From assembly GCA_030295235.1 (NCBI GenBank), contig AP026138.1, positions 806,001 to 870,000 on the forward strand: 64,000 nucleotides of DNA, read 5' to 3'. The translations under genes were made by a program, and so were the position numbers. The notes below the pieces were generated by a model that had not been told where the DNA came from, did no database searches, and saw only the letters and a list, made by a program, of their open reading frames with translations. Source of the stretch: Fistulifera solaris. Its lineage: Eukaryota. Each line of letters begins with the position of its first letter. Position 1 is the first letter of the stretch. This document shows positions 1 through 51,886 of this stretch, piece by piece.

Positions 1-353
1 TCCAATGTCAATGGCTCAAAGGCTTTTTCGTCACCAAAGATCTCGACTCGTTTCTTCCAGTAATTGAGATAACGGGTGACGGCATCGGTGACTCGAAAGA
101 CTTCCGATCGCAAGAACATGAGTTCAAATTGGGCTGTCAACAATTCGGGACATTTTTCCTTGGCCATGAGATACTCCTGATTCGAGGGAGTCTTCTGAAC
201 CGTTCGTTCTGCCAATTCTTCGGCAAACTGTGCCAACGTTTTCTGAATGAGATCAGGCGTTTCTTTCGGATGCACTTGACCGTAATGATCCGGTTCGTCA
301 TCGCTGTCGGAAGAAATGGTGCAAGTAGAAGAAAGAGATAGTAATTTGACCAT
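1..353 (-). CDS. CRAL-TRIO N-terminal-like protein (5' part; continues off the window edge)
   Basis: My translation from ATG at 353 is open to base 1: MVKLLSLSS...AKEKCPELLTAQFELMFLRSEVFRVTDAVTRYLNYWKKRVEIFGDEKAF. The FLR...A..R...YW..R..LFG pattern is typical of CRAL-TRIO N domains. Confidence 0.6.
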   Translation of the reverse strand, partial: MVKLLSLSSTCTISSDSDDEPDHYGQVHPKETPDLIQKTLAQFAEELAERTVQKTPSNQEYLMAKEKCPELLTAQFELMFLRSEVFRVTDAVTRYLNYWKKRVEIFGDEKAFEPLTL

Positions 354-1029
354 GATGGAAGGTGGACAGTTTGTTTTCGTGATGAAGTTGTGGTTGTGAT
401 GGCAATATCAATTAAAAAGGGTCATGTGTCGTGTGTTTTGAGCTTTGTGCCGACGACCGAGATTTTTCTCGCCCAACATAAACATTTGTGATGCTGATGC
501 GTGGCTGCGTGGCGCATTGATGCGATGATGAGAAAGTAGAAAGTGTGAACCAAACGGACATTTTGCTCAACGCATTCTTTGGCCTTTCGAGAACTTTATG
601 AACCTAGACTATCGCCGCTTGCTATAATTGTTTTGAAAACACTTCAGTCATTATCGGCATTCGTCATTCTCGTCCATGCAGGATTTTGGATTTTTCTCCC
701 TCCAGGTGGACTATAGTGTCGAAGTGTTAATTCATGACTGAAATCCAGTCGTGAAAAAAGTAACGTACACATTGTGCGAGAGTAAACTTTTACCAAACAT
801 CCTTCGATGAAAATTATCGACCTTCGACGCAAGCATAAACTTCTTCCGTCCAATCTATTGCTCAGTTGATTGCCTTCAAATCATCGAAACTTTGCCTTCA
901 GGTTCATCTAAAATAAGAAAGATCAGAGAATTGTCCCTTTTCGTTTCGCCTCTTTTTGCACTATTGTCGAAAGTGTTGTCCGTTTTTACCAAGACTGGAT
1001 TTCAGTCATGAGCATCTCTCGGTTCGAAT

Positions 1030-45719: not shown

Positions 45720-47229
45720 TTACTTTTTACTCTTTTTTCTCTTCGACTTTGTACCACGTCGAGAATTTGGCGATCGATTCGCCGCATTCACCTGTAAAGG
45801 CGGTACTACTGGACGCGGCGCTACGGGTGCTGCTAAAACCGTTTGCTTTTCTTGAGAACGTTGATCACGCTCTGCTCGAAGAGTATCTAGTCGAGCTTGA
45901 AGCATGGCTCCTTCGTTCACTTTAGAGCTTCCACCGGCTGCGCCAATACCTAAAAGACCATCAACAAAGCCATCCGGTTCAAACTGCTCACACGTGACAA
46001 ACAAATAGAACGTAGCTGTATAAGAAAATGCGCAATGCAAAACGATTTATGCCCTTCCAATAATAGCGACTTACATCACGAAGATCCTCCATCCCTTCTC
46101 CGACACCAATTAGTTTCACCGGAAGTTGTAAATCTCGAGAAACCGCCACTACACTACCGCCTCGTGCACTTCCATCCAACTTGGTCAATATCAGTCCCGT
46201 CAATCCAATCTCTTTGTTCCATACTTGCGCTGAGTCCAACGCCATGCGTCCTTGTGCGGCATCTATCACTAACAATGTTTCGTGCGGGACATTCATGTTC
46301 GGGATAGGAAATCCTTTTTCATTGTTTTGTTGCGAAAGTCGCTTCTGTATAACACGTTTCATTTTCACCAACTCTTGCGTTAGCGCCTCATTATTGCTCA
46401 AGCGTCCGGAGGTATCCACCAACAGTGTATCGTACTTTTCCAGAACCGCCTTATCGAGTGCCGAATAGAGAACAGCGGCCGGTGACTTGACGGTATCGGT
46501 GGGTCCCACGAGATCAACTTGCGCTCGATCGGCCCATTGTTGCAGCTGCGCTACCGCCCCGGCACGGAATGTATCACACGCGGCCACCAAGACCGTTTGA
46601 TTTCCTTCGGTGCGCAAACGATGAGCTAGTTTCCCTATTGTTGTCGTCTTTCCCATGCCGTTTGCACCCAGTATGAAAAGAACCGTAGGCAGATTGGGAT
46701 CTTGACTGAATTGAATCATTCTGGATTGTTCCGTTTCGAGTGCCTCTAATATTTTTCCGCGCATGATCGACATGAGATCCTCTCGCGACAAACGCTGACG
46801 TGAACTTTCGCGGAGACTTTGTACTTCTTGTACAATGTCTTCGGCCGTCGCAATACCCAAATCCGCTTGCAGTAATACATCTTCTAACTCTTGCATCATT
46901 TCTTCTGGATCGATTCCGGTGAATAAAAACTCCAATCGATCGAGAAATCGGTTGCGACTTTTTGAGAGACCTTCCGCAAATGCCTTGTTGCGTTCGTTTG
47001 TGTAAGACGCTACATCCGCTAATCCTTTACCCAGTTGCCCCTGACTTGCTGATTTCGCTAAATTGTTGAGTTGATCGATTCCTTCTTTCGTGCGGTCTTT
47101 GAAAAAGTCAAACACCATATTCAATTGCGTTTTACTTGCAAGAGATGATGGTGTCACGACGACAAAGGCAAACGCCGTTTGTTGCAGAATAGCAGCCAGT
47201 AAGAAGCTGCAAAGCCTTTGCCCTTTCAT
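45720..47229 (-). CDS. cpFtsY: Plastid SRP receptor FtsY (intron 45984-46074)
   Basis: Presequence TAFA-F, GANGMGKTTT, DTFRAGA, DTSGRL, TKLDGSARGG, and GVGEGMEDLRD|FEPDGF across the intron. Confidence 0.93.
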
Positions 47230-47548: not shown

Positions 47549-50176
47549 CTAGATCACAAAGGCTCCTTGACTACTCACAGTTCCTCCGCTCGCTTGACGA
47601 CGCATCAATATATGATCATCGGAAGGTCGTGGTAACTGCGCTGACGGATCTGATTTCTTCCAGTGCCGTCCCGCCCAACTCAACAATAGTTCACGATCAT
47701 CCGGTGGATAGGCCTGTGTATATTCTTTCAAAATCGAATTCGCATTCTGTTCATTCACATCGGCAATGTAGATTGTCGCGGCCAGTCGCATTTCATTATG
47801 CCGTCGATAGTCGACGGCCGAAGTGGCATGGACCGCACCGTCGCCCATCATCGAACCCACTTCGTATTCGTATCGATACCGACCGACAACGCGGTTCTCC
47901 TTATCGTCAAATCCATCCTCGTACGAAGCACCTTCGACCAAATCCAATTCAGGACCGGTATGATTGGCTAACAACAATGGTACAATGACGTTGTAAGTTT
48001 TGGCACCCGTCCACAAGACATCGTGATGTTGATAACCTTCGGTCGATTGAGATACGGCGATGAAAGTGACATGGAACGCCACCAAGCCGTCCAAGCCTAG
48101 ATACTTTCCCACACCGTCCAGCACAGTATCAAAGCCAGATGCCGATAAAGCTTGCAAGTAATGTTCATGAGAATGCTCGTCACCGGGTGACAGCCAATGT
48201 AAATTTGATCGCCATTCGGGTCCGGGTCGTTGCAAATACCATTTCGTACCATCCGCTAAAGGCAAATATCCATTTTGCCGTGCTTGCAAGGCATTTCCTT
48301 CAATAGTCACGTGTCGAAATACATCCATGATGCCCATGGATTCACAATACTCCAGCAGGACTTGTCGGACAGAAGCCGGAACGCCGACACGAAATGCCCA
48401 GGGCGTGACGACTTGAGCGGACGACTGCCACCGAATGGGAGCCATCATCCCTGGTGTCAATGGCGAGGCAATAAAATCACCGTATGGTTGCGGATCCGGC
48501 AACAGCCAATGTCGCGGATAAAAGTCGTCGTGCAGTGGTACACTGATTTCGTGACGAAAGGCATGATCTGAGTACTCGGGAAGAGTGTAAGGTCGATTTA
48601 CTAGTCGAATTGCCTCGCGTGGGATCTGCGTCACTTGAACTGCTGTTTTCAGCACACCGCATTCCGATGGTTCGCGAATACTTCCCATAGGATGTACAAT
48701 GACCGTGTAAAGCAATTTCTCGTTATCAAGGCGCTCAAGAATCTCACAAGGACGCCAGCAGGAGGATAGAGTTGGTTTTTGCCAAGTAGCGACGTTGCTC
48801 AGTTCTTCGGTATCAATCGCGTTCATAAAATGACAGGCTGTTTGCAATTGCGCAGGCAATGCTTTTGTGGACAATGGCTCCCATGCATGTTGTTGCGTAT
48901 ACTCGTCGGCTGTGACGATAGCTTCTCTTGGTAGCTCTTTTATTTGCTGTTGATGTTCATTCCAAGCCGCAACCCAATCACTTCCATAATCCAAAAGGAT
49001 TTCGTCACCGGGTTGTATATCTCGCAAAGCCACATATTCCATGACGAGATAATATCCATCCTCCCCAAACGCCATTTCGAGTAGTTCCATGACAGGATAC
49101 GACTCCGACGATAACAAGGTATTCGCATGCCCGTATCGACGCGACCATTGCAGTCTGACGTTGGGCACAATTTCCGATTGAACACTAACACTTGAAGCGT
49201 GCTGAATGAAATTACTCCCGGTTGCCATGGGCCACAACAACACATTCGAGTCATCTCGTCCGTACACATAATTGGTGAACAACTGTTGACGCAGTACATG
49301 AGTATTGTTGAATTGAATGCCATGTCCCCGTGCGAATTGCGGCAATCGATTTTCGTTCGTATTACTCGGATGACTGGAACGTGCGTGTTGTTGCACCACA
49401 TTCAATTGACTCCGATCTAACAACAGAACGGGAGAAAGCATTACAACTTGTCCGGCGGCGACGTGATGCTTCGAAAAAGCCCCGTACCCTCCATTCGATG
49501 AGGGCTGTACCGACACGGTATCCATACACATGCCCTGCTGCAGCAAATCTTCAAAAGTCCGAGAAGCTTGTCGTTTGTACAGTCGCATCATTTTCGGATT
49601 GTTGGCTCGACACGGTGTCAACAAGACTTCTCCCGCTCGAATATCTCGGATCGCCCGTGCTTGAATGAGTTGTCGGGTGGACGCCGAACCATCTCCTGGA
49701 CGACTGCGGCGATCGGCTGGAACTGCAATGAGCTCAATATTCGCGTATTCCAGTCCACCGCATTCGGTCAGCGATCCGATTCCTCCCAACAAGACGTCAT
49801 GCAAGTAATTGGTTTCCCATAAAGCATCCGGATAAAGTACATTCTCTTCGCTCGTTGTCGTGTAGGACAAAGGATCCCATACCAAATCATGCCACGGACT
49901 GTATTCATTCGGATTCGCATCCGAAATCGATAAAAAGAGATCCGGACTTCCTAACAAAGATCCTGCCGGGATGGTTACGGCACTGTAGAGCGTCCATTGA
50001 TGAGGATTCCATGGCGATGGACTAAAATACGTTTGACAGGCAGTATTTTCTTCGTCGGAACAGTTCTCGTTCGTTTTGTAGCAAACGGGAGCTTCTCTTT
50101 GTTTTTCGGAAGATGAAGAGACGAGAAGCAACAACCATGTTGTTGTCAGGAAAGAAATGTTTTTCATCGTCATCAT
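47549..50176 (-). CDS. Secreted SET-domain protein with a C-terminal 2OG-Fe(II)-oxygenase-like domain
   Basis: Signal peptide. Degenerate SET1 (ARAIRDIRAGEVLL). SET2 with GYGAFSK, SNFIQH and VALRDIQPGDEILLDYG. C-terminal domain with HHD...HAT...MRL. Confidence 0.75.
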   Translation of the reverse strand: MMTMKNISFLTTTWLLLLVSSSSEKQREAPVCYKTNENCSDEENTACQTYFSPSPWNPHQWTLYSAVTIPAGSLLGSPDLFLSISDANPNEYSPWHDLVWDPLSYTTTSEENVLYPDALWETNYLHDVLLGGIGSLTECGGLEYANIELIAVPADRRSRPGDGSASTRQLIQARAIRDIRAGEVLLTPCRANNPKMMRLYKRQASRTFEDLLQQGMCMDTVSVQPSSNGGYGAFSKHHVAAGQVVMLSPVLLLDRSQLNVVQQHARSSHPSNTNENRLPQFARGHGIQFNNTHVLRQQLFTNYVYGRDDSNVLLWPMATGSNFIQHASSVSVQSEIVPNVRLQWSRRYGHANTLLSSESYPVMELLEMAFGEDGYYLVMEYVALRDIQPGDEILLDYGSDWVAAWNEHQQQIKELPREAIVTADEYTQQHAWEPLSTKALPAQLQTACHFMNAIDTEELSNVATWQKPTLSSCWRPCEILERLDNEKLLYTVIVHPMGSIREPSECGVLKTAVQVTQIPREAIRLVNRPYTLPEYSDHAFRHEISVPLHDDFYPRHWLLPDPQPYGDFIASPLTPGMMAPIRWQSSAQVVTPWAFRVGVPASVRQVLLEYCESMGIMDVFRHVTIEGNALQARQNGYLPLADGTKWYLQRPGPEWRSNLHWLSPGDEHSHEHYLQALSASGFDTVLDGVGKYLGLDGLVAFHVTFIAVSQSTEGYQHHDVLWTGAKTYNVIVPLLLANHTGPELDLVEGASYEDGFDDKENRVVGRYRYEYEVGSMMGDGAVHATSAVDYRRHNEMRLAATIYIADVNEQNANSILKEYTQAYPPDDRELLLSWAGRHWKKSDPSAQLPRPSDDHILMRRQASGGTVSSQGAFVI

Positions 50177-50660: not shown

Positions 50661-51886
50661 TCACTTGTCTCGGTTCGACTGCAGCAGCAGTAACATTTGT
50701 TCATGAATGTCTTTCTGTAGTCGACGTTTCGTCGTCTCGTCACAAAAAGCATACTCCACGGATTGTTCCACCAAACGACATATCATTGACACATTCAAAT
50801 CAAAGGCACGACAGAGCAGCCATAACTCTTTCGTAGGATTGGTATCAAAGACCCCCGGATCGTCCGTTCCAATCGCTAAAGGATATTGCGTATCCAGCCA
50901 TTCGCGCAATTGTGGATGTTGCTGCAATCCTTCGATTAAATGACCTCGCACGTGTTGAGCCAGTTCCAAGGTCATGACATTACTCATGGGACACGTTTCG
51001 ACGGGAATGTGACGTTGTTGCGACGACCAGAGTGTATTGGGAACAAATAATGCGTGTCCCAAGCGATCGGGGCCGAATTCCAACATGGCCTGTGTCTCGC
51101 TGTATTTCGGAGGTGACGACTCATCATCATGGTCACTCGTCATAGCCCCACTATCAGCAACTTCACCGCAATGTAGTGTAATGCGCAATCCAGCTTGTCG
51201 TGCTCGCTCCAAGTGCGGTCGAACGATCCTAAAATCACCACGAGTCGGATTCCCTCCTAAATCCATTCCGACAATGCGATCGGCGTACAGGGTGCTTTTT
51301 CGCAAATCAATAGCCAGCTCAACATTTTCACAGGCTTCCTGTTCCGACAGTGACCGATCGATTGCTACAATCAAACGGCACGTCATGGGACGAGTGCGAC
51401 TTTGTTCGAATTCGTTCATGACACCCAGAACCGTCTCTAAATACTGTCGTTTGTCGCATTCAGCATTCAATACTTTGGGCGTGGTGCGCAATTCCAGATA
51501 CAAAACATTGTGCGCCGCAAAGTCGTGCAAAGCTTCGAACGTGATCCTCCGTAACGAAGTTACATCACTGACGCATCGAGGAATTTCAGCAAACATGTCG
51601 AAGCAATCATGTAACGATCGTGGCTGTACATTGTACAAGAGGGCGTCCTCGTCGTCCGTGTGATATCTATTTTGATTGTTTTCATTCTTTTCGCAGGTTG
51701 AAAGTGATGTGACGACAACGTGACGCCTTTTTCTTCCGCCAAAGCAAAGAGTGTGTCGGGACGAATGCATCCATTTAAATGAGCGTGTAATTCCACTTTG
51801 GGGATTTTCTGGAGAAATGAATAGAGCGATGATGCTAGTGGCCCATTGCTGTTATCATATTTCCTCTTGAAATCGGTCTCTCTCAT
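50661..51886 (-). CDS. ADAL: Adenosine deaminase-like protein (N6-methyl-AMP deaminase type); apparent indel near 51700
   Basis: PKVELHAHLNG, YLELRTTPK, DLGGNP, TLHCGE, PDRLGHA, ETCPMSN, TDDPGVF. Confidence 0.88.

Follow-up and report, generated by a model that had tools for sequence, protein, structure and literature searches.

A predicted secretory SET methyltransferase of the diatom Fistulifera solaris carries a PhyH-like 2-oxoglutarate oxygenase-fold domain without a Pfam family

Which enzymes make the unusual amino acids of diatom silica walls? To our knowledge, none has been identified for either trimethyl-δ-hydroxylysine, which is phosphorylated at a later stage, or 3,4-dihydroxyproline. 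A 64,000-nucleotide stretch of the Fistulifera solaris genome (contig AP026138.1, positions 806,001 to 870,000 of the forward strand; hereafter the window) raises the question at a single gene, an uninterrupted open reading frame (ORF) for a protein of 875 amino acids. An initial annotation, made from the letters alone, proposed that its product is a secretory SET methyltransferase joined to a domain like that of Fe(II)/2-oxoglutarate (2OG) oxygenases, and that it might both hydroxylate and methylate lysines of silica proteins. Here, we follow up this proposal. The reading we favour, to which we give a probability of about 0.5, is that the protein is a secretory bifunctional modifier of wall proteins that acts mainly on lysine. 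In the accessible text of PMC4557024, ε-N,N,N-trimethyl-δ-hydroxylysine and 3,4-dihydroxyproline appear as constituents of diatom walls, where they have been known for a long time. Silica precipitation in vitro is controlled there by how the lysines of silaffins are modified, and the unknown modifying enzymes are proposed to recognise KXXK motifs. The features discussed below are collected in Table 1.

The C-terminal third of the protein is its best-conserved part, with 61–63% identity to relatives of ~700 amino acids, whose SET halves share only ~37%. An AlphaFold2 (AF2) model of residues 530–875 (346 residues, built on a 61-row alignment) has a predicted local distance difference test score (pLDDT) of 89.8, with 261 residues at 90 or above, and a predicted template modelling score (pTM) of 0.87. 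Its eight core strands follow the order of a double-stranded β-helix (DSBH). When this model was compared with the PDB by Foldseek, 460 of the best 500 matches had E<=1e-3. The matches listed are all Fe(II)/2OG oxygenases, including CurA Hal (2.4e-7), OkaE, AsqJ, SnoN, PhyH, GriE and prolyl 4-hydroxylase (P4H), with the single exception of rank 48, 8fni_14, a chain of a trypanosome RNA-editing complex. Re-alignment to SnoN with VIA gave Z 12.8 and a root-mean-square deviation (rmsd) of 3.6 Å over 215 residues, and SnoK, CurA Hal, AsqJ, PrhA and PHYHD1 were similar. A separate VIA scan of 48,161 chains placed 90 at Z>=8, with SnoK first at Z 12.8. The best 50 of these 90 belong to the 2OG-oxygenase superfamily except 8fnc_14, 2rg4_A and 8ag3_C, where some chains are members by title and others are ones that we take to be members. 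Neighbours found with a protein language model point the same way: a cluster named ‘2OG-Fe(II) oxygenase family protein’ (0.95) and clusters of HalD and PF13640. The DSBH fold expected by the initial annotation is thus recovered in the model, and we are confident that, as modelled, the domain has a true 2OG-oxygenase fold and that its metal site is intact. JmjC was considered as the closest fold and rejected, since the PhyH-like group ranks first.

Is this fold likely to be an active one? The HxD motif, the distal His and the downstream Arg lie where they had been proposed from the letters (Table 1). In particular, the minus-strand segment 47786..47830, which encodes HATSAVDYRRHNEMR, has the codon of H783 at one end (47828–47830) and that of R797 at the other (47786–47788). 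DSSP assigns the core strands to domain residues 168–179, 181–191, 198–206, 215–218, 235–238, 244–248, 253–256 and 268–276. In this numbering H717-x-D719 (188–190) falls at the end of the second strand, H783 (254) on the seventh, and R797 (268) opens the eighth. These are the strand positions at which the facial triad and the residue that binds the C5 carboxylate of 2OG are canonically found in the superfamily.

These residues are also the best-conserved positions of the family, and their fit to the proposed HxD…H…R layout is not due to chance. An alignment of 30 sequences (the window domain and 29 mostly stand-alone forms, 29–59% identical) has D719, Y769, H783, T785 and R797 invariant, and H717 in at least 90%. 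Among SET-fused homologues with a residue at the column in question, H717 is kept in 58/59, D719 in 58/59, H783 in 52/54 and R797 in 52/54. A hidden Markov model (HMM) of the domain, run over 199 stored proteins, found it in 198 of them, in 241 copies. Counted in the same manner over these copies, the values are 199/220 for H717, 207/223 for D719, 182/202 for H783, 167/202 for T785 and 183/203 for R797. All four columns are covered in 193 copies, 170 of which have the full set H-D-H-R, and most of the exceptions are extra copies in tandem proteins. Counted by protein, H-D-H-R is found in 135 of the 138 single-copy proteins with these columns, while 32 of 36 multi-copy proteins have at least one such copy beside decayed sisters.

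Tandem arrangements are themselves a feature of the family. Two to four copies of the oxygenase fold occur in P0065, P0009, P0064, P0066, P0069 and others, and usually one copy keeps H-D-H-R. For example, the four copies of P0065 read QYHR, HDHR, HDHV and YDQV.

A pattern of enzyme plus pseudoenzyme copies suggests that the four residues matter for catalysis. This bears on an alternative in which the DSBH of the C-terminal domain serves binding or scaffolding without catalysis, and the protein is a plain secreted SET methyltransferase. The decayed copies in tandem proteins and the domain's lack of membership in any sequence family lend this idea something, yet all four catalytic-type residues stand in nearly every single-copy protein and one intact set survives in almost every multi-copy protein. 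Such retention is typical of selection on catalysis, and we consider a purely structural role highly improbable. The oxygenase domain is, in our judgement, very probably active. The retained Asp points to a site of the hydroxylase type rather than the halogenase type, given that halogenases of the CurA Hal and SyrB2 type have Ala or Gly in place of the triad carboxylate. A halogenase reading was rejected on this residue, despite the presence of CurA Hal among the top fold matches.

The domain is not confined to this protein. A phmmer search of 1.84 billion representative sequences returned 506 proteins at E<=1e-3, of which 380 reach E<=1e-10 and 196 reach E<=1e-30. From 150 listed matches, 74 were scanned against Pfam, chosen as the long, multi-stretch and ~300-residue ones. 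SET is the partner in 20; ShK with 2OG-FeII_Oxy_3 in two (P0098 and P0127, the latter in a cluster that a source calls ‘prolyl 4-hydroxylase’); ShK alone in three; MBD alone in one (P0142); and ankyrin, SET and MBD together in one (P0162, a Nitzschia sp. transcript). Among the remaining 48, P0095 has only one further, sub-threshold match beside SET, and 47 have no Pfam family. Many of the ~300-residue stand-alone forms have a hydrophobic start. P0142 and P0162 have no hydrophobic N-terminus, and P0162 begins acidic, with a PKRPRS stretch; both are probably nuclear paralogues. This range of partners suggests a mobile, predicted catalytic module that is mostly secretory and most often joined to SET. 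The family is likely restricted to diatoms.

The same partners bring in two other views of what the oxygenase might do. In the first, it would hydroxylate proline (e.g. the second step to 3,4-dihydroxyproline) or another residue while SET methylates lysines independently, so that the fusion would reflect shared substrate proteins and not a shared residue. The P4H-type domains with ShK in P0098 and P0127 fit this view and keep proline a live rival. Moreover, the free-proline hydroxylases 7dt0 and 7dzz are among the fold matches, and 3,4-dihydroxyproline is, in the accessible text of PMC4557024, a wall amino acid without a known enzyme. However, SET is by far the commonest partner (20 of 74 scanned, with P4H in 2), all 61 matches of our first search align to the SET-bearing query, most over >90% of its length, and the gene models of P0098 and P0127 may have been fused on short metagenome contigs. 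Hydroxylation of proline is, on balance, unlikely.

In the second view, the oxygenase would be an N-methyl-lysine demethylase that trims or proofreads the methylation laid down by SET, by hydroxylating N-methyl groups as JmjC and AlkB enzymes do. Chromatin enzymes offer a precedent, as JmjC oxygenases fused to SET are given in a table row for JMJD2/KDM4 in the accessible part of PMC2938197. AlkB-family demethylases appear among our weaker fold matches, and the MBD and ankyrin architectures of P0142 and P0162 are chromatin-like. Against this, the closest folds are PhyH-like and not JmjC, a writer and an eraser on one secreted polypeptide would be futile, and wall proteins carry a stable C-hydroxylated lysine that needs a hydroxylase. 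We hold demethylation to be very unlikely.

The partner that matters here is the SET half. PF00856 is the sole Pfam family found in the protein (residues 230–398, E 1.4e-6, 29.1 bits with a gathering threshold of 22.4). The AF2 model of residues 1–529 (pLDDT 85.3, pTM 0.83) agrees: its range 215..398 aligns by VIA to the SET domain of EZH2 (4mi5) with Z 11.3 and rmsd 2.6 Å over 106 residues, and vSET, MLL1 and SMYD2 lie near EZH2 in the SET fold matching. The GYGAF, NFIQH and GDEILLDYG motifs are all in this second module. From the SET motif set GxG/NH/ELxxDY, the window protein has G230/G232, H326, E392 and Y397, and among 60 homologues G232 is kept in 58, H326 in 60, N339 in 60, E392 in 59 and Y397 in 59. 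The first module is a degenerate relative of the second. Comparison of the profile of residues 45–200 with that of residues 205–410 by hhalign gave a probability of 92.8% (E 3.9e-7, 138 columns), with the …RDI.AGE.L… strand of the first aligned on …RDI.PGDEI.LDY… of the second, and the model pLDDT of residues 48–195 is mostly >90. Both SET-like modules of the initial annotation are therefore found, one as a recognisable SET domain and the other only as a decayed copy. The middle domain that follows them (residues 401–529) keeps its cysteines in 37–38 of 38 sequences.

Where would such a protein work? A signal peptide had been proposed, and hydrophobic N-termini are common among the homologues. 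Residues 1–23 are hydrophobic and probably form a signal peptide for the endoplasmic reticulum (ER), as predicted from their sequence. We scored N-terminal hydrophobicity as the best 9-residue Kyte–Doolittle window (KD9), with a cut of 2.0. This cut is reached by 46 of the 56 proteins of the first homologue set that start with M (the window protein is one of the 56), including its sibling P0002 (2.78) and the related copy P0003 (2.57), while the window protein itself scores 1.82. No second hydrophobic segment of membrane-span grade was found elsewhere in the 875 residues (KD19 maximum 1.28), and direct reading of the sequence found neither a Phe-type plastid motif after the hydrophobic core nor a KDEL-type signal at the C-terminus (…GAFVI). 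Ten cysteines are conserved: C32 (36/38), C47 (58/58), C139 (59/60), C189 (58/60), C217 (59/60), C448, C473 and C477 (each 38/38), C506 (37/38) and C611 (58/60). With these, the protein fits a lumenal, disulfide-bonded state. The ShK and P4H domains of other family members also speak for a secretory route.

The 5' end of the gene may have a variant in sequencing reads. For this stretch we had read contigs from four runs of one study, of unrecorded run type, and the contigs are short. One contig of run X2 follows the ORF to 50035, in the codon of Q48, and then continues, upstream in the sense of the gene, with 255 letters unlike the window. The window sequence has no AG acceptor at 50035. A public sibling, P0063 (822 amino acids), starts at the equivalent of residue 49. 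The X2 contig upstream of 50035 may represent a second haplotype or copy with another 5' end and no signal peptide. Together, the X2 divergence and the P0063 start leave some doubt about where the coding sequence begins and, with it, about the signal peptide.

Nemoto et al. (2020, Mar Biotechnol 22:551) reportedly described BacSET, a diatom-restricted group of SET proteins with an ER-targeting N-terminus. The SET half of the window protein is a putative member, as its diatom origin, SET domain and hydrophobic N-terminus are observed. We propose that the gene product would be a protein-modifying enzyme of this group with two activities, working in the secretory pathway (the lumen of the ER, the Golgi or the silica-deposition vesicle). 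The degenerate SET copy would probably serve as a module for substrate binding or scaffolding, and the small Cys-bearing β domain probably helps to hold the substrate protein. The catalytic SET domain would transfer methyl groups from S-adenosylmethionine to ε-amines of lysines. In the oxygenase domain, H717, D719 and H783 would hold Fe(II) and R797 (with T785) would hold 2OG, and this domain would hydroxylate a C–H bond of the same substrate. The likeliest substrate would be a lysine in cell-wall proteins of the KXXK type (silaffins, cingulins), and both activities on lysine would yield ε-N-methylated δ-hydroxylysine. The analysis itself establishes the ORF, its SET domain, the DSBH fold, the conserved HxD…H…R set, the hydrophobic N-terminus and the partners to which the family is fused. 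We infer that the protein is catalytic, which residue and carbon it attacks, which reaction comes first, where it resides and how it relates to silica. Narrower versions are more tentative. That the domain is specifically the δ-hydroxylase for trimethyl-hydroxylysine is a possibility that we rate well below even odds. Equally doubtful is the fuller proposal that the SET–oxygenase polypeptide alone installs trimethyl-δ-hydroxylysine on KXXK motifs, with the family as a diatom toolkit of protein C-hydroxylases that also makes dihydroxyproline and perhaps hydroxylates nuclear lysines.

Given the fusion to SET, lysine is the substrate that asks for the fewest assumptions. Small molecules and polyamines stay live rivals in view of the PhyH-like neighbourhood, whose enzymes overwhelmingly act on small molecules. 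Both domains might then act on long-chain polyamines, on polyamine-modified lysines or on another small molecule, by N-methylation and oxidation. However, SET domains are known as protein-lysine methyltransferases, we know of no SET enzyme for free polyamines, and the degenerate extra SET and oxygenase copies suggest binding of a macromolecular substrate. In favour of polyamines, BacSETs have been proposed to regulate the long-chain ones too, according to the accessible parts of papers citing Nemoto 2020 (PMC11151724, PMC11554505). On balance, we consider a polyamine substrate quite unlikely.

Returning to the bifunctional modifier of wall lysines, several findings weigh against it. At the level of sequence, Pfam at E<=10 found no oxygenase family in the window protein or in any of 30 members, and PhyH (PF05721), 2OG-FeII_Oxy_3 (PF13640) and HalD (PF23169) did not reach the gathering threshold in these members. 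This failure against every Pfam oxygenase family is also what marks the domain as a separate, unnamed sequence family. Searches of the domain against the PDB by phmmer and by profile gave no relevant match, and hhalign of the domain to the P4H domains of P0098 and P0127 gave a probability of 0.1%. The placement of H717, D719 and H783 in a triad is modelled from the DSSP string and the fold match. Regarding substrate, the closest structures are mostly enzymes of small molecules or of carrier-tethered substrates, and neither collagen lysyl hydroxylase (PLOD) nor JMJD6, itself a lysyl 5-hydroxylase, is among the best 50 VIA matches, a non-appearance that excludes neither family. The domain also stands beside P4H and ShK, and beside MBD or ankyrin in proteins with no signal peptide; it is thus not bound to lysine, nor exclusively to the secretory route. 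On the SET side, the Asn of the ‘NH’ motif, present in 52 of 60 homologues, is replaced by Q325 in the window protein. The N-terminus falls below the hydropathy cut, as noted above. Finally, named members come from three diatom genera only (Fistulifera, Mayamaea and Nitzschia), the rest being metagenome proteins.

How does the window protein compare with known systems? Collagen lysyl hydroxylases (PLOD/LH3) are ER-lumenal, multidomain enzymes whose Fe/2OG domain hydroxylates C5 of lysine. They resemble our proposal in this chemistry and in carrying successive lysine-modifying activities on one lumenal polypeptide; they differ in that no sequence relation was detected, they lie outside the best 50 fold matches, and their partner domains are glycosyltransferases and not SET. 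The JmjC–SET fusions of chromatin, like the window protein, join a 2OG oxygenase to a domain that deals with lysine methyl marks, and the relatives P0142 and P0162 carry MBD or ankyrin. The window protein is distinguished from JmjC systems by a DSBH of the PhyH-like subgroup and by a predicted signal peptide in place of a nuclear character. The PhyH-like oxygenases themselves (SnoK/SnoN, AsqJ, OkaE, PrhA, PHYHD1, PhyH and CurA Hal) match the domain at Z 11.6–12.8 over ~205–225 residues with rmsd 3.4–4.1 Å, and share with it the HxD…H layout and the Arg at the start of strand VIII. However, identity to them is 7–14% with no Pfam or HMM match, and the window domain is eukaryotic, secretory by prediction and SET-fused, with a substrate that is probably a protein.

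BacSETs share with the window protein the diatom SET domain and the ER-type N-terminus, and their expression is tied to cell-wall formation in the parts of the sources available. For example, expression of 24 BacSETs in Seminavis is highest at cytokinesis, together with that of cell-wall genes (bioRxiv 10.1101/2020.11.23.393678, accessible part), and SET-domain genes are tied to silicon or salinity responses in diatoms (PMC11151724; PMC11554505, likewise in part). In what is accessible of them, the papers citing BacSET speak of a methyltransferase only, whereas the window protein adds a C-terminal third with a 2OG-oxygenase fold. In the literature that we searched, no oxygenase domain is described for these SET proteins, although Nemoto et al. 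2020, known to us through citing papers, might mention a conserved C-terminal region; nor is a candidate diatom lysyl hydroxylase named there. As far as we found, that literature has no account of a protein in which a signal peptide is followed by SET and a PhyH-like oxygenase. The oxygenase half is a new sequence family of a known superfamily, in a new architecture. One further lead came from PMC2938197, whose accessible part mentions homologues of a cyanophage dioxygenase in diatoms; tblastn against 50,697 phage records gave nothing relevant.

The predicted fusion of an oxygenase domain with a lysine methyltransferase is a directly testable candidate for the unknown enzymes that modify amino acids of the silica wall, and its domain defines a family of ~500 representative sequences without a Pfam model. 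If the proposal is true, the maturation of biosilica proteins would become accessible to enzymology, and tools for making authentically modified silaffin peptides would follow.

Table 1. The ORF, its domains and proposed active-site residues, and the flanking genes, in window coordinates
Feature	Coordinates	Strand	Basis
Complete single-exon ORF, 875 aa and stop codon	47549..50176	-	ATG to stop without interruption
Hydrophobic N-terminus, residues 1-23, MMTMKNISFLTTTWLLLLVSSSS	50108..50176	-	Kyte-Doolittle hydropathy
Degenerate SET-like module, residues 48-195; no NH or DY motif; conserved Cys47/139/189	49592..50035	-	hhalign
SET lysine methyltransferase domain (predicted), residues 215-400	48977..49534	-	Pfam PF00856 and fold
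Long helix and small β-rich domain, residues 401-529; Cys448/473/477/506	48590..48976	-	DSSP of model
PhyH-like Fe(II)/2OG oxygenase-fold domain, no Pfam family, residues 566-850	47627..48481	-	AF2, Foldseek and VIA
H717-H718-D719, proposed HxD metal ligands, end of DSBH strand II	48020..48028	-	sequence and DSSP
H783-A-T785, strand VII, with the proposed distal His ligand and a conserved Thr	47822..47830	-	sequence and DSSP
R797, proposed 2OG C5-carboxylate-binding Arg, start of strand VIII	47786..47788	-	sequence and DSSP
SRP54-type GTPase (FtsY-like), AFAF-containing hydrophobic N-terminus	45988..47229	-	flanking gene
Adenosine-deaminase-family protein gene	50661..51770	-	flanking gene

Fistulifera solaris is an allodiploid diatom. 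The exact 875-residue protein is present in public protein sources, and a public sibling in its 90%-identity cluster carries the name ‘hypothetical protein’ of Fistulifera solaris. P0002 is near-identical to the window protein and P0003 is 88% identical, which fits a homeologue. Within the window itself, tblastn of the protein found one copy.

The read contigs say little about whether both halves are transcribed together. Coverage by run X1 is even over all 30 bins of the stretch, and contigs of run X2 lie on both halves of the ORF (e.g. 48116–48230, 48323–48665, 48867–49011 and 49516–50020). Among the contigs listed from the four runs, none spans the junction between SET and oxygenase and none has a joint inside the ORF, so a single mRNA for both halves is neither shown nor refuted by these short contigs.

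No functional tie is evident between the ORF and either flanking gene, the SRP54-type GTPase, which is possibly the plastid cpFtsY, or the adenosine-deaminase-family protein. At the 3' end of the GTPase gene, a contig of run X4 omits 91 bases, given as 45983..46075, whose borders read CT..AC, or GT..AG when taken on the minus strand. This suggests that the gap is an intron and that X4 contains spliced RNA.

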